From positions 6,840,001 to 6,872,000 of the forward strand of contig NC_008312.1 in assembly GCF_000014265.1 (NCBI RefSeq): 32,000 nucleotides of DNA, in the 5' to 3' direction. This DNA is from Trichodesmium erythraeum IMS101. GTDB lineage: Bacteria; Cyanobacteriota; Cyanobacteriia; Cyanobacteriales; Microcoleaceae. Positions within the stretch are counted from its first letter, which is position 1, and the number at the start of each line of letters is the position of its first letter. Positions 2,683 through 28,915 of the stretch are shown here, piece by piece. The position numbers and the translations under genes are program-made. The notes under the pieces are model-generated. The model saw only the letters and a list, made by a program, of their open reading frames with translations. It was not told the origin of the DNA and searched no databases.

Positions 2683-3609
2683 TTACCTGTTTGAATCATA
2701 CGGTTCAGCATGGCACATTGTATGAACAACTCTACTGCTTGGGCTTTCGAATTTTCCTCGTCGTAACTGACCTCCAAAGCTCACTTTGAGTCTAAACATT
2801 GTGGTTTCTGATAGAGAACGCCGATGGTAACCACTTTCATGCTTCCATTTTTGGCGTCCTACCTTTCTGATTCTTCTGAGGTTTTCATCTCTGGGATGAG
2901 GTGGGCATTTGCAGTTGCCGTGTTGACCTATTACTGCATTTTTCCTGGGTGGAATTGTTACTTTTGCTCCTAGTTGGTTAGCTTTCTGGTAACATTTATA
3001 CTTGTCATAGGCTCCATCTCCTGATACTTGGGCTATTTCCCCATCTACTCCATTTCTCAAGTTCAGAAAATGCTTGTGAATCACTGACATCATTGGTAGT
3101 CACTACTCCACTGACAATCTCTCCTTTAGCCTCATTTACTCCTAGGTGTAATTTACCCCATGTACGCCGTTTACTGACACCATGAACTTTTGTTTTCCAT
3201 TCACCTTCTCCGTAAACTTTCACCCCTGTAGAGTCTACTACTGTACGGAATAGTTTCATTAGTTGGTATAACTGGCAGTTGGATATTCAGTTTGAGCAAG
3301 GGACGGGATACAGTGCTATGGTCTGGTACTGGTAAATCTAAGTCCATCAATTGAAATATAGATTCGACAAAACCTTCAGTCTGTCGTCCGGCCAGACCAA
3401 ACAATGATTGTATAGTGACCATAAATTCAATGGCCGTATTGCTATAGGTATTTGATGCCCCCCTACGTCCAGTTTTTTGTTGATTTACCCACTGCTCTAT
3501 GACTTCATCATTCAACCAAAATGTGAGGCTCCCTCTCTGTCTTAGGGACGCATCAGACCTACGACCAGTTGCTGAAGAGGTACTTATACTTGGACTTGGA
3601 CTTACTCAT
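2683..3609 (-). pseudogene. IS903-like DDE transposase, interrupted by frameshifts and in-frame stops
   Basis: The transposase is split over at least four frame segments: MSKSKSKYKYLFSNWS* (3609..3562), then ..ASLRQRGSLTFWLNDEVIEQW.. (ORF 3201..3515), ORF 3005..3259 (first DDE Asp, DSTG), and ORF 2683..3093 (DGAYD and ..SETTMFRLK). Confidence 0.8.
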
Positions 3610-3662
3610 CTCTACCCTTACTATAGGTTTCTTGTGCCACACGCTTATTGTTACCATATTTT

Positions 3663-3683
3663 CTATCTTTATACAACAAAGCC
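3663..3683. repeat. IS terminal inverted repeat (right end)
   Basis: + strand CTATCTTTATACAACAAAGCC, the reverse complement of GGCTTTGTTGTATAAAGATAG. Confidence 0.75.
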
Positions 3684-4792
3684 CCGAGGAATTGCAAGTT
3701 ACCACAGGAATTGAACACTTTTGTCCAGAAGTAGATAATTTAAAATATTTTCGCAGCAAGAACGCCGCTTTTGCCCAATATTTTGCAGATATGGAAGGTT
3801 TCGATCTAGTCCGAACGACTTGTATTTATATGAGAAGAGAGACTTCAGATATTTCAGTTTGGTACAACAACGAACTCATTCATCAATGTTCTGTTTTATT
3901 CGCTGGTCGTCATTTGTTATCAGATTTCTTAGAATTAAATCCCAATTTTTTTTCCCAACTATTCGAGCAGAATTTGAGAGACTGGAATCAATTAACAGAA
4001 GACAAATTCAGGGCAACGCTGGATGTATTTTTACGTCGAAAAAGCCAAAATTGGCTGAAAAATAAAAGAGACTTTGCCGAGGATGATCCTAAGTTCCAAG
4101 GCTTTATCCGCCTGATGGCAATTGGCATAGGGGGATTATACTACTATGTGGGAACAACATTGGGAGTGCTAGAACAGAAAGGAAAATACCAGAGTCGCGA
4201 AATTACTCCTGTTTATATTGGCGGAAATGGTTCTCAAGTGTTAAATTGGTTGGTTGAAGGGGGTAGGCTTCTTGCTGATTCAGAAATTAGCGATCTCCTG
4301 AGTCAGATGTTGAATAAAGGGTCTGGATTTAACGATCGCATATTGGAAAAAACGCGATTAAGTCAGAGACCAGAAGACGAGGTAGCTTGCGGTTTAGTAT
4401 TGGATCGTGCTAAACTAACAGGATGGAATAAAAAGACTAAAGAACCGTTGATAGAATGGATAGAAACCTTGAAGTTTGAGGGGAATATTCGGAAATTAAA
4501 AATTCCTGATTTAGTACCGTTAAGAACATTTCTAGATTATTTTCATGTATCTTTAAAGGAGTTAGAGATAGAGGAAATTCTCCCGCTACAGAATTACGAA
4601 CTGGGAGACGAACCAGGGGCAGAACCAGAATCTACTTATAACCAGACTCTCTGGCGAAATACCCAGATGGAGTTGACAAACATTTCATTGAAGATGAAGA
4701 GAGAAACTAATGACATTCTCCTAGAACCGCCCTTTATTATGGGACTGAAAGCTCTGTTAAAAGTTTTAGCTAAGGAGTGGGCAGATAAATAA
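3684..4792 (+). pseudogene. Probable 5'-truncated gene (uncharacterised; possible actin/Hsp70-like ASKHA C-terminal half) fused in frame to IS sequence
   Basis: ORF 3569..4792 starts at an ATG inside the IS. Its first 38 codons are IS-derived and the reading frame crosses the right IR at 3683. The native part begins ..PEELQVTTGIEHFCPE... The motifs ..TSDISVW.. and ..VYIGGNGSQVLNWL.. loosely resemble the phosphate-2 and adenosine motifs of actin-like ATPases, and no N-terminal half is present. Alternatively the native start is the internal ATG at 3791 (MEGFDL). Confidence 0.5.
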
Positions 4793-19398: not shown

Positions 19399-19498
19399 TT
19401 TTTACTACAGTCGGTATTTAAACAGATTTACACTTTCAAGGTTTGGGAAAAAAATGCTTAATTTAGTATTTCAATGAGAATGCTGAGTAGCAGAAGTA

Positions 19499-19533
19499 CT
19501 GATAACTAATAACTGATAACTGATAACTGAAAT
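19499..19533. repeat. Heptamer tandem repeat CTGATAA x5 (3 perfect)
   Basis: ctgataa ctaataa ctgataa ctgataa ctgaaat, ending 12 bp upstream of the exbD ORF start. Confidence 0.9.
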
Positions 19534-21867: not shown

Positions 21868-22968
21868 ATGAATAATGGGCTACAATGGGATGATTTTCTG
21901 ATAATAATTGCTAATGAATATCGTTTGACTAAAGTAGAAAAAGAGTTCTTTTTTAAAAGATTTGCCAAGGAAAATTTGGAGAAGAAAGATGGAGAGATGT
22001 CTCGTCTTGTAATGGGGAATGATAGTCAGGAGCAAACTTATAGAAAACGAAAGAGTAATGTATATAAGAAATTTAAAGACATCATAAATCATGATGGAAA
22101 AGACAAGTTTCCAATCTTATTAAAAAAGTTAGAAAAAGAATATCAAAGTCGGTATTTTTCACAAGAAATTACTAAGTCTCCACTAGAACCTAAAAATAAA
22201 GTTTCTAATCCTTTTATTCCATTAAGTGGAGTTATAGATAATTCCTGGTTATTTTTTAATAGAGAGGAAGAAATTAATAGCATTTTTGAGGTACTTAATA
22301 GTGGTAGTAGTGTTGCTATTATTGGGGAGGGTGGAGTGGGAAAGTCTTCTCTTTTGAAGGCGATCGCTCAAAAAGCTGATAAATATCTTGAAAAACCTCG
22401 GAAGTCAATATATATAGATTTGCAAAATATTCAAAGTGATGATGATTTTTATACTGCTCTTTGTGAGAAGGTTGGTATTGAAATTTCTCGGGGATATCTG
22501 TTACAAAGAAATCTGAAGTTACACCGAATTTTGCTTTTGCTTGATGTGGTAGAAAATATTAGTTATGACTGGTTTACTAATAAATTGCGTAGTCAGTTAC
22601 GAGGGTTAGCAAGTAATTTTGAGCCTCCTTTACGTTTAGTTATTGCTGCTTCTAAATCATTGGATACTTTGTTTCCAGATAGCGGGGATAAAACTTCTCC
22701 ATTTGAAAATATTTGTATTGAAGAACATTTGAAACCTTGGAATGAAAAAACTATTCGTAATTTTATTAATGCTCGCCTTCAGGCTGATTTTTTGGAGCCA
22801 GAATATCAAGGAATTAAGTTTGGTGAGGATGAGATTTTACAAATTATTGAAAGTAGCAAAGGTTATCCCCGTAAAGTGATACATCAATGTCATGAATTAT
22901 TTAAGTCGAAGAGTTACAATTCTGGTTTGCTGAACAAGTCTTTTCAGGAGGGGGGAACTGAGTCTTAA
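21868..22968 (+). CDS. Small P-loop NTPase (STAND/archaeal-ATPase-like) with N-terminal HTH-like module
   Basis: Walker A IIGEGGVGKSSLL (G153 at 22324). Walker B RILLLLDVVE (D226 at 22543). ..SKGYPRKV.. resembles the GxP motif of STAND NTPases. N-terminal LTKVEKEFFFKRF...RKSNVYKKFKDI resembles a sigma70-region-4/LuxR-type HTH. Confidence 0.7.
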   Translation: MNNGLQWDDFLIIIANEYRLTKVEKEFFFKRFAKENLEKKDGEMSRLVMGNDSQEQTYRKRKSNVYKKFKDIINHDGKDKFPILLKKLEKEYQSRYFSQEITKSPLEPKNKVSNPFIPLSGVIDNSWLFFNREEEINSIFEVLNSGSSVAIIGEGGVGKSSLLKAIAQKADKYLEKPRKSIYIDLQNIQSDDDFYTALCEKVGIEISRGYLLQRNLKLHRILLLLDVVENISYDWFTNKLRSQLRGLASNFEPPLRLVIAASKSLDTLFPDSGDKTSPFENICIEEHLKPWNEKTIRNFINARLQADFLEPEYQGIKFGEDEILQIIESSKGYPRKVIHQCHELFKSKSYNSGLLNKSFQEGGTES

Positions 22969-23317: not shown

Positions 23318-23929
23318 ATGTCCCAGCATTCTATTCTTCAGGAAAATAAGTCTTATACTTTCGGTTCTTATGTCGAGTTGCCTGATGAAACGGAAGATAT
23401 TTTGGCTGAGTTTAACTACAATTTTAAAAGAGCAAAATTTTCTTTGCCTACATCACATCGGCAGTTGAAGGGTTTACCGGAATTAGGCGGGCGAATAGAG
23501 GAAAGTTTGCCTTTGGTAAGTTTGAGTAGCGAGGCGGCACGGCCAGAAGTTTTAATTGCTCCGGTACTTTTGCAAGTGGCTCGCTATTGTCAATGTTGCC
23601 TCAGAATTGAATATCCTTTGAATATAAATGAACGATTAAAAAGTAATCTTGATTATTTACTACAAGCTAATTCTCAACTGTTAGTAATTGAGGCTAAAAA
23701 TGATGATATGACCGGAGGTTTTAGACAGTTAGCTGTTGAGTTAATTGCATTATCAGAATGGGAACGGGAACGGGATTTAATTTTTGGTTGTGTAACTATG
23801 GGAGAACTTTGGATATTTGGGTTTTTGGATAAAAAACAATGTTTAATTCAGCAAAATATTGATTCTTTGAGAGTTCCTGGAGATTTGGAGGTTTTAGTTG
23901 ATGTGCTTGTGGGGATTTTAGAAGGTTGA
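23318..23929 (+). CDS. Stand-alone PD-(D/E)xK nuclease-fold protein (HsdR_N-like)
   Basis: 203 aa. Motif LDYLL(x8)LLVIEAKNDD..GFRQL (D112, E125, K127, Q137; nt 23651-23698), followed by ..IFGCVTMGELWIFGFL... This matches the D...ExK...Q...TnG..W pattern of the type I restriction HsdR N-terminal nuclease domain. Confidence 0.6.
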   Translation: MSQHSILQENKSYTFGSYVELPDETEDILAEFNYNFKRAKFSLPTSHRQLKGLPELGGRIEESLPLVSLSSEAARPEVLIAPVLLQVARYCQCCLRIEYPLNINERLKSNLDYLLQANSQLLVIEAKNDDMTGGFRQLAVELIALSEWERERDLIFGCVTMGELWIFGFLDKKQCLIQQNIDSLRVPGDLEVLVDVLVGILEG

Positions 23930-24147: not shown

Positions 24148-26904
24148 TTGATGAAAAAAGATAATGACTCGGTTCCCCGTCTGGATCTAGCGCCACAGTT
24201 AAAGCGCCCCCTTTCTATTTGGAATCTTTTGGATTATTTGCGGTTGTTGTATTGGGTGTTTTTCTTTCCCCAGGCGTTGCCGTGGTATGTGGAAAAGCAT
24301 GGGGGGGGAGAAGGTTTGGCTGAACAAAAAACTTGGGAAAGCCAGTTAGAATTTCTGCGGCAGCATCCTAACCAGTTGAGGTTATTGTTTCAGGGATTAA
24401 TTTTGATTGTTTGTGTTCCTTTTTTGTTTTGTATGTTGCTGCAGCAAATAGGTTTTACTATTAATTGGTCCGACGTGGCGTTAGGCGTGGCGTTAGGCGT
24501 GGCGGTTGGCGTGGCGTTCGGCGTGGCGTTCGGCGTGTCGGAAGGCGTGGCGTTCGTCGTGGCGTTAGGCGTGGCGTTAGGCGTGGCGTTCGGCGTGGCG
24601 GTTGGCGTGGCGTTCGGCGTGGCGTTAGGCGTGGCGGGAGGCGTGGCGTTCGGCGTGGCGGTTGGCGTGGCGGTTGGCGTGGCGTTAGGCGTGGCGTACG
24701 GCGTGGCGGGAGGCGTGGCGTTAGGCGTGGCGTACGGCGTGGCGGTTGGCGTGGCGGTTGGCGTGGCGGGAGGCGTGGCGTTCGGCGTGGCGTTAGGCGT
24801 GGCGTTAGGCGTGGCGGTTGGCGTGGCGTTCGGCGTGGCGGTTGGCGTGGCGGTTGGCGTGGCGGTTGGCGTGGCGTTAGGCGTGGCGGTTGGCGTGGCG
24901 TTCGGCGTGGCAATGTGGCGTCCGGAAAACTGGTTAATTGGTGTGCCACTCAACTCGATCTCAATTCAAAATCGTAGTTTCCTCCTACCTAGAGTTACTC
25001 CTATTCCTTTACCCTTGCTAGAAACTCGCTTAAAACTTTGGTTGAAAAAAGATTGGCAACTAGGTCTAGAAAACATTGATCAGCTTTTAAAATATAGTTT
25101 ACAGTTTATTCCAGTGGTTAATGCTATTAATGAGGTGTTAGCAGAAATTCCCTCAGAACAGATAATTTATCGAATTTCTCAGCTAGCAGAACATCCCTAT
25201 GATTGGAAACTTGTAAAATTTGCCTCTGCATCTTTAGTGGAAGAGTTAAAATTAGAGTTTATTAAAGGATTAAATTGGTTTTTTTCTTTTATAAGTATAA
25301 GCACCTCGTCAGCACCAACTCGCTTAGATACTCCACCCCACGCAACAGCCGCAGGTTTCTGGCATCTCTACGAAAAAGAACCAAAAAAAGCAACAGCAGC
25401 GTTTGAGCAAGTACGGGATATCCTTTACGGCGAGGAAATGTTTCTACTAGCTCAAACCCTAACTCAATTTCAAACAGCAACATCTCCTGATACCATTGCC
25501 GAAATAAAAATTCCCAACTTTCCACCAGAACCTCATCTACGCCCCATCACCTGGAAAGCTATCAAAGACTTACATCGTGTTGTTGAAGATACCCGACTTA
25601 TTTTAACAGCAACCTCAAAGTCAGCTCGTTCCTTTGCCCTTGCCAGAGCTATCGGTCAATTAGCAGAAACCCTAAATAATGCAAACACACTTCCCCAAGC
25701 CGAAAAAGATTTAATTGTCGATATCGCTCAAAATTGGAAAGAAGCTTTAGAAAAAATTGCTAAAGATGTCGGAGATATATCTATTACTAAACCCGTAAAA
25801 AATCCCTACGTCATTGGGGACCCAGTAGAGGGAGACCTGTTTGTAGGTCGGGAAGATATTATGAGAGAACTTGAGCAACTGTGGGTTATGAGTTCTCAAG
25901 CACAGTCAGTTATGCTCTACGGTCATCGTCGCATGGGAAAAACATCAATTCTACGGAATATTGCCAAATCTTCCGGTGCAGATGCACAAGTTATTTATGT
26001 CGACCTCCAAAGTTTAGAAGCCATTTCCCTGGGAATGGGTGAAGTATTTTTAGCCATTAGTGATAGAATTTCAGATAATATAAGCCTTCCTTCACCAGAC
26101 ACAGAGGAACTACTAAGACTTCCCCAACGAACCTTTGAACTCTACTTAAAACAGGCAATTAAAAAATTAGACAACAAAAGCTTAATTATTGCCCTGGATG
26201 AATTTGAAAGTATTGAAAACCTAATCAACGCAGAACAACTTCCACCTAACTTCATGGCAGTATTACGGAGCTTCGTGCAGATGAGTCCGAAAATAGCCTT
26301 TGCCTTCGCCGGACTGCACACTCTCGAAGAAATGACACAAGATTACTTTCAGCCATTTTTTGCGGGCTTCATACCCATCCCGGTCAGTTTTTTGAACAAA
26401 GCCACAACCAGTCAACTCCTTGCCAACCCAGACCCAGACTTCCTCCTCGAATACGAACCAGAAGCAATGGATCGTATTTACGACCTAACATTCGGGCAAG
26501 CCTACCTGGTGCAACTCCTAGGATTTTTACTTGTCAGACGCTACAACAAGCAAGTATTCGAGGAAGGAAAACCCAAAAAAGGTATTTTTACCGTTGCCGA
26601 CGTGAATACCATTATTGAAGAAAATGAACTATTTGAAACAGGGCGCTATTATTTCACAGGAGTTTGGGGGCAAGCCGGGGAAAATGCACCAGGACAACAA
26701 AATATTCTCAGAGCTTTAGCCAACCATTCAGGAAACTGTAGCCGCGCCATGGTTCAGGAAGTTACAGGTTTAGAGCAAAAAATTATTAATGATGCTCTTG
26801 ATACCCTTTTTCGCCACGATGTCATAGTCGAAACGGAGGAAAACCTAAAATTTGCCGTAGAATTATTTCACCGTTGGGTAGTGAAATATCAACTTGAAAA
26901 ATAA
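24148..26904 (+). CDS. Membrane-anchored (GVAX)n glycine-zipper repeat protein fused to AAA ATPase (archaeal-ATPase/ORC-like) with winged-helix tail
   Basis: 918 aa. TM helix [20 protein letters not shown]. Residues 109-256 are 37 GVAX tetrapeptides. A ~300-aa helical linker follows. [28 protein letters not shown] + Walker [13 protein letters not shown] (25921-25947). Walker [11 protein letters not shown] (from 26182). C-terminal ..[41 protein letters not shown].. is wHTH-like. Confidence 0.8.
24472..24915 (+). repeat. 37 tandem in-frame copies of a 12-bp unit GGCGTGGCG+NNN (NNN = tta/gtt/ttc/gga/tac, once gaa, once atg)
   Basis: Read unit by unit from the sequence. The only core deviations are gac (unit 1), tcg (unit 6), gtc (unit 8) and gca (unit 37). 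The core is 8/9 G+C in an AT-rich genome. Confidence 0.98.
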
Positions 26905-27144: not shown

Positions 27145-27475
27145 GGAAAATTCCCCTCCAAGAATAATTCCAACTCTGACAGAAAAAAAATGCTGAGTTC
27201 AAGTTAGTAATTTATGAGAATGGTGATTAAATAGTTTCCTGAAATTACTGAAGGGGTCAAAGTTTTAGATATCAAAAAATCTTACTTTTAACCTTGAAAA
27301 TTATGACTTTTAAGCTCGGTGAAACAGTATAAGTTTTGTCAAAAAAATTGAGTCATGAAAATATATCCACTGAGTTCAGGAGCTTACCCGAGAACCAAAA
27401 TATTTCTCATTCAAAAGTTTTAACAGCTCAAATCTTTATACTTAGTTATATTTTCAGCCCTACTATAAAAAAATC

Positions 27476-27513
27476 GTTATAATTAAATGAAATAGTTATA
27501 ATTAAATGAAATA
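27476..27513. repeat. Perfect 19-bp tandem duplication GTTATAATTAAATGAAATA x2
   Basis: Read directly: 27476-27494 is identical to 27495-27513. Confidence 0.95.
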
Positions 27514-27647
27514 TCTATACCTATCTTATGACTTTTAGCCGACTACAAACAAAAACTTTTTTTTTAGTAATTATCCCGAGAAAATATTATTTAATATGTA
27601 GCCAAAAATTGTAAAAACTCAAAAACTAGAAATAAATTATCAAACTC

Positions 27648-27811: not shown

Positions 27812-28915
27812 ATGTCTCGACCAACTTTATATATTGCCATTACTAATCATGGTTTTGGTCATGCGGTCCGTGTATCATCAGTAGCGAATTTGGTACAACA
27901 AATGTGTCCAGACGTTTTATTAATTATGGTGACAACTGCTCCCTATTGGTTACTAGAATCTTATATTTATGGTGATTTTATTTATCGTCCCCGTAGTTTT
28001 GACGTAGGAGTAATTCAATCAGATAGTATAACTATGGATAAACAAACTACCCTAGAAAAATTGCAAGAAATTAAAAAGAAAGAATATTCAATTATTGCTG
28101 GAGAAGTAAATTTTATCAAGCAAAATAAAGTAAATTTATTATTAGCAGATATCCCGCCCATAGCAGCTAAAATTGCTAAAAGTGTAGATATTCCATGTTG
28201 GATGTTGAGTAATTTTGGTTGGGATTTTATTTATCGTCCTTGGGGCGGTGAGTTCATAGAAATTGCTAATTGGATCAGTGAATGTTTTGCTCAGTGTAAC
28301 CGTTTATTTCGACTCCCATTGCACGAATCTATGAGTGCTTTTCCTAATATTTTTGATGTCGGTTTAACTGGGGGAATTCCACGTTATCAACCCGAAGAAA
28401 TTAGAGCAAAATTTAATATTCATGCAGAGAAAGAAAAAACTATTTTACTGACCTTTGGAGGTTTAGGTTTAGATAAGATTCCTTATGAAAATATTGGTGC
28501 TTTTCCCGACTGGCAATTTCTTACATTTGATAATGATACCCCTGAAATTCTTAACCTTATAAATGTGAGAAAAGAATCTCAAAAAAAAGAGATAAACTTG
28601 CCAAATATTCGACCTGTAGACTTGATGCCAATTTGTGGTAGAATAGTTTCTAAACCAGGATATAGTACTTTTGCTGAAGCCTTGCGTTTAGAAATACCTA
28701 TTGTGTCATTAATGAGAGAAGGTTTTGCCGAGTCAAAATTGTTATTAGAAGGAATTCAAGATTATAGTTATCATCAAATTTTGCCTCCAACAGAATTTTT
28801 TCATGATGATTGGGAATTTCTCAAACAACCCCTACAAGCACCCCGTAAATCTGATAAATTAGATAAAAATGGTAGCGAAGCGATCGCTAAATTTATTGTA
28901 GATTATATACAATAA
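27812..28915 (+). CDS. Glycosyltransferase (GT1/GT28 MurG-like fold), function unknown
   Basis: 367 aa. N-terminal LYIAITNHGFGHAVRVSSVA (the G-rich loop typical of GT-B UDP-sugar transferases) and C-terminal ..GRIVSKPGYSTFAEAL..IPIVSL.. donor-binding pattern. Contains a HIP1 site at 28880. Confidence 0.65.
   Translation: MSRPTLYIAITNHGFGHAVRVSSVANLVQQMCPDVLLIMVTTAPYWLLESYIYGDFIYRPRSFDVGVIQSDSITMDKQTTLEKLQEIKKKEYSIIAGEVNFIKQNKVNLLLADIPPIAAKIAKSVDIPCWMLSNFGWDFIYRPWGGEFIEIANWISECFAQCNRLFRLPLHESMSAFPNIFDVGLTGGIPRYQPEEIRAKFNIHAEKEKTILLTFGGLGLDKIPYENIGAFPDWQFLTFDNDTPEILNLINVRKESQKKEINLPNIRPVDLMPICGRIVSKPGYSTFAEALRLEIPIVSLMREGFAESKLLLEGIQDYSYHQILPPTEFFHDDWEFLKQPLQAPRKSDKLDKNGSEAIAKFIVDYIQ

Follow-up and report, generated by a model that had tools for sequence, protein, structure and literature searches.

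A long (G-V-A-x)n coding repeat in the predicted membrane domain of an AAA+ ATPase from Trichodesmium erythraeum, and the two-gene cyanobacterial NTPase system to which it belongs

Transmembrane (TM) glycine zippers (GxxxGxxxG) present faces of small residues that drive tight helix packing and oligomerisation. The known zippers comprise about three units, and up to about a dozen in the Cdz proteins, whereas the array described here, in a gene of Trichodesmium erythraeum IMS101 that we call geneB, runs through 37 consecutive (G-V-A-x) units and is, to our knowledge, among the longest glycine-zipper segments. The gene lies in a 32,000-nucleotide stretch of contig NC_008312.1 (positions 6,840,001 to 6,872,000), which we call the window and whose own coordinates are used throughout, and it forms a pair with a second nucleoside triphosphatase (NTPase) gene, geneA. 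Coding tandem repeats and contingency loci are known from the staphylococcal Ser-Asp regions, the ice-nucleation proteins and the phase-variable simple repeats, and the solved archaeal ATPase_2 proteins, which the C-terminal part of geneB resembles, are soluble. The locus belongs among known kinds of thing, namely glycine zippers, effector-shuffled NTPase conflict systems and the concerted evolution of coding repeats. We found no paper, Pfam or NCBIfam model, or defence-catalogue entry for the geneB family or for the array, and literature searches on the family, on GVA repeats and on glycine zippers with STAND proteins returned no description of either; the database names of geneB are limited to ‘AAA family ATPase’, ‘ATP-binding protein’ and ‘conserved membrane protein of unknown function’.

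The array shares with glycine zippers in general, and with CdzC and CdzD of Caulobacter (PMC5380434) and TelE (PMC10434224) in particular, a glycine at each fourth residue of a hydrophobic stretch. In contrast to the glycine-zipper toxins, it is fused to a cytoplasmic AAA+ ATPase and is not secreted, and none of the Pfam Gly-zipper models (Gly-zipper_Omp, _OmpA, _YMGG) matched the whole protein at E ≤ 0.1 or the array alone at E ≤ 10. Another close comparison is the GlyZip region of calcyanin (ccyA), which is likewise cyanobacterial, has a long Gly/small-x3 periodicity and is predicted to form compact membrane-embedded helical assemblies (PMC8890360). Nevertheless, calcyanin has three motifs of ~50 amino acids (aa), all of which bear specific signatures and a Gly-Pro at their centre, and no perfect four-residue array (PMC8890360); Gly-Pro is absent from the geneB array, which does not carry the calcyanin GlyZip signature. 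Calcyanin also differs from geneB in having no ATPase and no reported homogenisation at the DNA level, and no sequence relationship between the two was found. As for repeats in general, the array resembles other concertedly evolving coding repeats in its DNA-identical units, in the in-frame copy-number differences between strains and in its difficult assembly. Unlike the Ser-Asp, ice-nucleation and phase-variable repeats, geneB does not encode a surface or secreted protein and its 12-bp unit allows no on/off switching, and, unlike what simple concerted evolution would give, its synonymous codons are kept across orders.

The array occupies positions 24472–24915 on the forward strand (aa 109–256 of geneB), exactly 444 bp in frame with the open reading frame (ORF) at 24148–26904, and consists of 37 × 12 bp with the core GGCGTGGCG; it is a predicted glycine-zipper membrane segment. 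Its units read GGC-GTG-GCG-NNN. The first codon is GGC in 35 of the 37, unit 1 having GAC and unit 8 GTC instead; the second is GTG throughout (37/37); the third is GCG in 35, the exceptions being unit 6 (TCG) and unit 37 (GCA); and the fourth is GTT (11), TTA (10), TTC (9), GGA (3), TAC (2), GAA (1) or ATG (1). A preliminary description made from the sequence had reported 37 in-frame 12-bp units with one codon per amino acid per position, and every codon count in it proved exact; Tandem Repeats Finder sees the same structure as 36.5 copies of period 12 (score 561). The same description had the array at about three-quarters G+C, G-skewed and set in AT-rich surroundings, which agrees with a measured G+C of 72.5% against 35.5% for the window and with 237 G to 85 C. 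Elsewhere in geneB, GGC accounts for only 2 of 34 Gly codons, GCG for 4 of 56 Ala codons and GTG for 10 of 42 Val codons; because these codons are rare in the remainder of the gene, ordinary codon usage cannot explain the homogeneity of the array.

At the protein level, glycine stands at 35 of 37 consecutive i+4 positions, so that the array contains what defines a glycine zipper, at least three Gly spaced i, i+4, i+8 within a hydrophobic segment. The ladder had been called unbroken, which has to be qualified by the Asp of unit 1 and the Val of unit 8. Similarly, the description of the segment as 148 hydrophobic residues holds for its mean Kyte-Doolittle hydropathy (2.10) but not for every residue, since D109, S131, E132, Y184 and Y196 are among them, D109 and E132 being the only charged ones. 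AlphaFold2 (AF2) models the array as helices, at a predicted local distance difference test score (pLDDT) below 50. The repeat also creates long spurious ORFs in three other frames between 24390 and 24977 (two on the minus strand, of 187 aa and 162 aa, and one of 170 aa on the plus strand), and wrong-frame translations of comparable arrays occur in protein databases.

The family was searched with the non-repeat part of geneB (aa 257–918), and among the 8000 scored candidates, those sharing the most words with the query, 996 proteins reached E ≤ 1e-5, the named matches being cyanobacterial. Identity to geneB is 78% in Okeania and 52–58% in Planktothrix, Nostoc, Calothrix, Scytonema and Gloeothece. 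Nearly all full-length homologs have a G-[VIM]-[AGV]-x ladder between a near-invariant W107 and an LRPENW junction, with 8 to about 75 units; the region between these two landmarks covers 32–303 aa (median 131), a length that is divisible by 4 in 36 of 68 loci. As a protein, the (G-V-A-x)n repeat is old; as DNA, it is young. The preliminary view that it reflects recent duplication rather than an old protein-level repeat does not hold in its second half, the array being at an equivalent position across cyanobacterial orders. In a minority of orthologs the same place is taken by two to five discrete hydrophobic segments with charged loops between them and no Gly ladder. These ordinary TM segments are the best evidence here that the region is a membrane domain, and they also show that a perfect ladder is not strictly required. 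The membrane reading first given to the segment is in line with this, its strong hydrophobicity suggesting the character of a membrane domain.

Several members of the family depart from this arrangement. In a 78% identical relative (L010/P0002), the array is replaced by a hydrophobic stretch that is not GVAx and contains a perfect (GIVMF)x5 repeat; the array region seems prone to generating new repeats. In P0013, a 963-aa protein from a Microcoleaceae metagenome-assembled genome (MAG), geneB begins shortly before the membrane region and is joined directly to the N-terminal ~150 aa of a geneA homolog; this may have arisen naturally, by gene fusion or deletion, or may reflect a misassembly. Finally, fragments of the family or of a sister family (P0140, P0144, P0145, P0148 and P0428) are labelled as coming from Aminicenantes, Thermoflexus, Anaerolineales, Clostridia and Nitrospira MAGs, meaning either that the system reaches beyond cyanobacteria or that these are binning errors.

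Codon usage inside and outside the array was compared in 9 genomic and 80 metagenomic loci that were fetched, with counts pooled over 72 loci. GGC makes up 55% of Gly codons in the arrays against 17% outside, GTG 68% against 23% of Val codons, and GCG 54% against 12% of Ala codons. The array of each genome is homogenised to its own core 9-mer, which is GGCGTGGCG in most lineages and GGCGTGGCA, GGCGTGGCT, GGTGTGGCA, GGTGTGGCG, GGAGTTGCC or GGCGTGGTG in others. Zero synonymous variation within each array, which is usual in the family, therefore indicates concerted evolution through the gain, loss and copying of units, as the preliminary description had proposed in terms of recent unit duplication, shuffling or gene conversion. 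The alternative considered there, arrays invariant between strains and carrying synonymous differences, is not what we found, as both length and unit order vary and the arrays are homogenised. Unit turnover would proceed by slipped-strand mispairing or by unequal recombination between identical GGCGTGGCG cores.

Proteins that cluster at ≥90% identity differ from one another only by whole units, although some of these differences could be assembly errors. Nostoc linckia z15 and z18 differ by 36 aa (9 units) with C-terminal 547 aa that are 100% identical, two Planktothrix agardhii genomes by 20 aa (5 units; C-terminal 467 aa, 100% identical), Nostoc DedSLP01 and ChiSLP02 by 8 aa (2 units; C-terminal 533 aa, 100% identical), and Nostoc 2RC and ZfuVER08 by 4 aa (1 unit; C-terminal identity 97.6%). 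In a sister family, four variants from metagenomes are 5–12 units apart although 685 flanking residues are identical among them. The predicted polymorphism of repeat number is thus borne out between near-identical relatives by indels of one to nine whole units, although none was seen within T. erythraeum. The related comparison with contingency loci is a loose one, since the changes keep the frame and a 12-bp unit cannot switch the gene on and off. Variation by whole units also led us to set aside a diversity-generating retroelement (DGR) as its source: Tandem Repeats Finder detects the repeat nowhere else in the window, and a Pfam scan of 10 of the larger window ORFs contains no reverse transcriptase, although no search aimed at DGRs was made.

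Within T. erythraeum, loci for comparison were found through geneA. All 37 units recur unchanged in an independent assembly (L096, GCA_018457135.1), which shows 0 differences over the whole of geneB, and the gene is called there at L096:8284-11037; neither the 917-aa nor the 918-aa protein was present on exact look-up in a collection of 15 billion proteins. In a SPAdes contig (L095), the array has 5 units, units 1–4 being joined to unit 37, with flanks showing 0 mismatches, which is probably an assembly collapse. Two other contigs (L097 and L098) end inside the array, the latter recurring in 12 samples, and a search with the N-terminal 124 aa retrieved 36 fragments of 76–203 aa, many of them labelled partial, of which most of those read end inside the array. 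The suspicion that short-read assemblies collapse at this repeat was therefore well founded. Such repeats are error-prone, and the 5-unit contig and the many contigs stopping inside the array could be taken to mean that the array itself is an assembly or sequencing artefact; nevertheless, the identical 37 units of L096 rule this out for all practical purposes, the reading frame is intact and hundreds of homologs have arrays at the equivalent position. A Trichodesmium-like metagenome contig (L093:628-1295) has flanks that are 96.5% identical to the window at the nucleotide level, 17 reordered units and an in-frame TAA in unit 7; a pseudogene, an error in sequencing and a collapse in assembly are all conceivable explanations.

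The conservation of individual codons across orders was examined by counting them in register in 56 loci with ≥8 units, which were also collapsed to 26 clusters at <70% C-terminal identity. The majority codon is GGC for the position 1 Gly in 42/56 loci and 18/26 clusters, GTG for the position 2 Val in 47/55 loci and 19/26 clusters, and GCG for the position 3 Ala in 32/48 loci and 17/25 clusters. At position 4, the majority Gly codon is GGA in 14/19 loci (GGC in only 2) and in 12/16 clusters, and the majority Val codon is mixed among loci. Outside the array of the corresponding genes, the same codons are in the majority in very few loci (GGC 6/56, GTG 4/56, GCG 1/56), and the pattern holds over flanking G+C contents from 33% to 57%. 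Since concerted evolution alone does not slow substitution of the consensus, a directional force is needed for this retention across orders. We regard the cross-order retention of position-specific synonymous codons as an unexplained observation. GC-biased gene conversion is unlikely to account for the GC-rich core, because the fourth codons of the units end in A or T (TTA, GTT, GGA).

A role for the core as DNA or RNA in addition to its coding function would be one explanation, either in the mRNA, where structure or G-richness might slow translation and so help the membrane domain to insert, or as a DNA motif that aids in-register recombination. It draws on the retention of the core codons in 17–19 of 25–26 independent clusters, on the position 4 GGA, which sister families use likewise, and on the folding of the array RNA (−163.5 kcal/mol per 300 nucleotides, z = −8.1 against shuffles). 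However, the natural core ranks only 9th in folding among 64 synonymous cores, and 5th among the 8 GC-ending ones, so that selection for maximal or minimal RNA self-folding is unsupported; lineages have switched cores (GGAGTTGCC, GGTGTGGCA, GGCGTTGCA) and retained the array, and no known motif was matched, Rfam and covariance-model analysis not having been run. Therefore, selection on GGCGTGGCG as a nucleotide element seems to us improbable.

The gene that carries the array, geneB (24148–26904, forward strand), encodes 918 aa from a TTG start, or 917 aa from the ATG at 24151, and its ORF is intact. A basic N-terminus is followed by the most conserved N-terminal motif (24175–24288), in which L12, L14, P16, L18, L22, N26, D29, L33, L34, Y35, W36, F38, F40, P41, Q42 and Y47 are invariant and which belongs to no Pfam family. 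Directly before the array lies a predicted TM helix (aa 77–100, 24376–24447; hydropathy segment 84–97; AF2 helix 74–100 at pLDDT ~75). Directly after it, the junction W-R-P-E-N-W (24916–24933), whose consensus is LRPENW, closes the array in nearly all homologs; its W262 is invariant and R258 near-invariant in 66 sequences, and E260 is near-invariant in a 36-sequence alignment. The junction opens an all-helical middle domain (aa 257–560, 24916–25827) with many invariant residues, where AF2 places confident helices at about aa 290–541. This conserved domain also has no Pfam family. Indeed, the Pfam scan returned no model for the N-terminal motif, the array or the middle domain, geneB has no NCBIfam match, and searches of PDB sequences gave nothing significant, whether the query was the family profile or the N-terminal 281 aa.

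The C-terminal part is better characterised. An AAA+ ATPase domain (25840–26517) has an intact Walker A (GHRRMGKTS, aa 592–600, 25921–25947) and an intact Walker B (LIIALDEFE, aa 679–687, 26182–26208); across 66 homologs, G592–K598, S600 and D684–E687 are invariant and T599 near-invariant. The domain matches Pfam ATPase_2 (PF01637) at aa 565–708 with 39.8 bits against a gathering cut-off of 33.2 (E 5.6e-10). It is followed by a winged-helix-like domain (26680–26901; AF2 helices and a beta hairpin at 866–902) resembling those of archaeal ATPase_2 proteins and Orc1/Cdc6, and some geneB homologs carry a PF09339 helix-turn-helix (HTH) annotation. The best PDB matches in Foldseek are 2qen (E 1.3e-8, TM-target 0.63) and 2fna (E 5.7e-8), then Orc1/Cdc6 and RuvB, and the alignments to 2qen, 2fna and Orc1/Cdc6 cover ~390 columns. 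The C-terminal 350 aa are therefore built as in the archaeal ATPase_2 proteins (PF01637; PDB 2qen, 2fna) and Orc1/Cdc6, with an AAA+ domain, a lid and a winged helix, whereas the solved ATPase_2 members are of ~350 aa and geneB adds the N-terminal motif, the array and the helical middle domain. Judged by its motifs and predicted fold, geneB is an active-looking AAA+ protein of the ATPase_2 type with a C-terminal winged helix, the array forming most of its predicted membrane domain.

The other member of the pair, geneA (21868–22968, forward strand), encodes a 366-aa P-loop NTPase that is nSTAND1-like, with a Walker A at 22324–22347 (GEGGVGKS) and a 110-aa N-terminal domain, and is 100% identical to ‘ATPase [Trichodesmium erythraeum IMS101]’. 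Its own match to nSTAND1 covers only 40 residues (29.4 bits against a cut-off of 27.1); with the 54 geneB-adjacent orthologs added, 49 of 55 geneA proteins match, the best at E 2e-12. In essentially all loci that extend far enough upstream (~60 loci), geneB is directly preceded on its own strand by a geneA homolog, which often abuts or overlaps it, and the arrangement is also found in the genomes of Nostoc ATCC 53789 and Okeania. The N-terminal domains of the 54 geneB-adjacent copies are Trypsin_2 in 8, CHAT in 7, TIR_2 in 5, caspase in 1 and HNH in 1, the remainder being HTH-like or without assignment, so that a protease domain is present on 16 of 54; geneA homologs in databases swap these domains too. 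By analogy, the N-terminal domain of the window geneA is probably non-enzymatic and HTH-like. The array is present alongside every type of geneA, and geneB forms the constant second half of the two-gene operon, whose conservation extends across cyanobacteria, including many filamentous ones.

This arrangement recalls the counter-invader systems in which nSTAND1 is the central NTPase and bears such N-terminal effectors (Kaur et al., PMC8195603). With the nSTAND1 and nSTAND2 systems of multicellular bacteria (PMC8195603), it shares the nSTAND1 match of geneA and the swappable TIR, caspase and trypsin N-termini, and with nSTAND2 also the operon of two NTPase genes with the variable module on one of them. 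However, geneA is paired with an AAA+ protein of the ATPase_2 type whose membrane domain is built of repeats, a partner not mentioned in the nSTAND descriptions (PMC8195603), and both Walker motif sets, of geneA and of geneB, are intact. Unlike typical STAND proteins, moreover, geneA has no detected C-terminal sensor or superstructure-forming repeats and ends at the NTPase module. A further parallel is provided by the EACC1-protease-Avs modules (PMC7159879; PMC12642450), where a constant membrane component rich in small residues is encoded beside a protease-bearing NTPase; EACC1 is a proven latent pore former that is freed by cleavage (PMC12642450). It is nevertheless a small protein with a single TM segment and an autoinhibitory beta domain, as opposed to the 918 aa, many predicted passes and own ATPase of geneB, and a protease is found on only ~30% of geneA copies; EACC1 is set apart here by architecture, not by sequence comparison. 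One described membrane-embedded phage-defence NTPase likewise acts at the membrane, but its NTPase family and membrane domain differ, and the available part of its description mentions no repeat array or partner NTPase.

An exhaustive HMMER search with the array alone returned 1944 proteins at E ≤ 1e-3, many of them unrelated low-complexity or wrong-frame sequences. Among them, a recurring sister class of the same architecture combines a different N-terminal motif (e.g., W.L.WLLFMQP..LH) with an array of the (GVAx)n or (GIAx)n type, a helical ‘PLP’ region and a C-terminus of the AAA_22, nSTAND1 or ATPase_2 type; one member is labelled Nitrospira. Two sister arrays (L102:2380-4908 and L103:4001-6367) are perfectly homogenised, to GGCGTTGCA x30 and GGCGTGGCT x22 respectively, with GGC for the Gly of position 1 and GGA for that of position 4 (9/9 in each). 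Each of the two genes is preceded by an NTPase gene, with a TIR domain on one of these NTPases, and one sister-family locus lies beside a transposase gene and another beside an antitoxin gene. Therefore, the association of a zipper array and an ATPase with a neighbouring effector-NTPase gene extends beyond the geneB family.

Because the N-terminal domain of geneA is swapped among trypsin, CHAT, TIR, caspase, HNH and HTH types, we read the pair as an NLR-like conflict or abortive-infection system in which geneB would be the membrane-embedded constant component and geneA would deliver the variable effector. The (GVAx)n array would form several tightly packing TM helices with Gly/Ala faces, anchoring the ATPase and driving its self-association. 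A trigger at the membrane, perhaps incoming DNA sensed by the winged helix or a perturbation of the membrane, would then lead to ATP-dependent oligomerisation of geneB and geneA and activation of the effector, and the membrane may also be perturbed. Taken as a whole, a constant membrane ATPase with a concertedly evolving array and a variable-effector partner is the best explanation we can offer, and we hold it with moderate confidence. Several observations weigh against it. The low pLDDT of the array leaves the number of helices, the topology and the packing unfixed in the model, and a region length of 32–303 aa is hard to square with a fixed number of membrane passes. The geneB protein is 50–58% identical between orders, with many invariant residues, which is unusual for an immune gene and would also fit a housekeeping one. 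The geneA of T. erythraeum IMS101 has no enzymatic effector domain according to Pfam, and no array polymorphism was seen within this species (two assemblies are identical and a third is probably collapsed). Furthermore, no known defence-system model covers the pair, PADLOC-DB v2 giving only short matches to the P-loop region (PDC-S27, PDC-S01, mad8; E 1e-5 or weaker), and the neighbourhood (ExbBD, a histidine kinase, MscS) is not a defence island. These neighbours, together with the strong conservation of geneB, which broadly follows taxonomy, and the stable operon arrangement, could instead indicate a housekeeping membrane ATPase machine of cyanobacteria, acting for instance in the biogenesis of membranes or thylakoids, in the biology of septa or filaments, or in the handling of DNA at the membrane. 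We think this unlikely, as the shuffling of trypsin, CHAT, caspase, TIR and HNH domains is typical of conflict systems (PMC8195603), sister-family loci adjoin transposase and antitoxin genes, and the fastest-evolving part of geneB is hypervariable.

The array itself might be the killing device, its zipper helices oligomerising into a pore or disrupting the membrane once the ATPase is activated, in which case geneB would be the effector and geneA a sensor or co-effector. The extreme GxxxG ladder in a fully hydrophobic segment invites this reading, and so do the requirement of glycine zippers for the toxicity of CdzC/D (PMC5380434) and TelE (PMC10434224), the proven latent pore-forming activity of the small EACC1 membrane proteins encoded beside protease-NTPase genes (PMC12642450), the protease domains on geneA, the conserved junction motif directly after the array and a sub-threshold match to Romo1. 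Nevertheless, classical effectors (TIR, HNH, proteases) are already on geneA and the array is present whatever geneA carries; since it belongs to the constant membrane component, it is not obviously the effector. Moreover, orthologs with an ordinary polytopic TM domain make the ladder dispensable for the function of the family, and the AF2 model of the array is uninformative, so that a pore remains a possible but tentative proposal. An opposite reading, which we find doubtful, would make the array a passive anchor, a slippage-prone hydrophobic filler of neutrally changing length that owes its perfection to mutation dynamics and not to function. It would accommodate the variable length and composition of the region amid highly conserved domains, the lineages with non-repeat TM segments or other repeats such as (GIVMF)x5, and the whole-unit indels between otherwise identical proteins, but not readily the retention of G-V-A at positions 1–3 across orders and sister families, the conservation of position-specific codons well above neutral expectation, or the recurrence of GVAx arrays with an ATPase architecture outside the family. 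An amyloid or beta structure, in which G-V-A-x would oppose a small face to a bulky one, is not favoured, given the ordinary TM segments in the place of the array in non-repeat orthologs and the helix predicted by AF2. Lastly, the array could be a self-renewing hypervariable membrane module of an immune receptor, in which selection at the nucleotide level would keep a recombination-competent core (GGCGTGGCG, alongside a separate set of codons at the fourth position) across cyanobacteria, and in-register turnover of units would give rise to ever new lengths and arrangements of TM helices, tuning the recognition of, or resistance to, membrane-active phage proteins or DNA entry; we give this little credence, although, if true, a transmembrane domain would here be diversified through its repeats by a mechanism that is neither a DGR nor phase variation.

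Among the other features of the window, a 203-aa PD-(D/E)xK nuclease gene (23318–23929, forward strand; PADLOC PD_DExK, E 2e-24) lies between geneA and geneB. Among the loci searched by tblastn, this insert was found only in those of Okeania (L001 and L091) and not in ~55 others, and a 203-aa gene is called at the matching spacing in the Trichodesmium loci L092 and L095–L098. It may be an added effector specific to the Trichodesmium/Okeania lineage or an unrelated insertion, and its membership of the system is uncertain. Tandem Repeats Finder reports two further repeats, ACTGATA x4.7 at 19498–19530, between the ExbB and ExbD genes, and a 19-bp unit x2.3 at 27471–27519, upstream of the ORF starting at 27812. 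This ORF (27812–28915, forward strand, 367 aa) and that at 3569–4792 (forward strand, 407 aa) have no Pfam match at E ≤ 0.001.

The interest of these findings rests on the scale of the ladder, the breadth of an unannotated two-gene system and the conservation of codons across orders. They carry a practical warning, as short-read assemblies break or collapse at the array and database entries are consequently often truncated or contain a wrong number of repeats. The array is a clear case of concerted evolution in a bacterial coding sequence, to which an unexplained conservation of synonymous codons across orders is added, and the arrays of the geneB family lend themselves to the study of how membranes accommodate very long Gly-x3 ladders. 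If our reading is correct, many cyanobacteria, filamentous ones especially and including Trichodesmium, a nitrogen fixer of global importance, would carry a conserved two-gene NTPase system that is annotated only as ‘AAA family ATPase’, and which, in cyanobacteria that form blooms, could be tested as a candidate for immunity coupled to the membrane or for regulated cell death.

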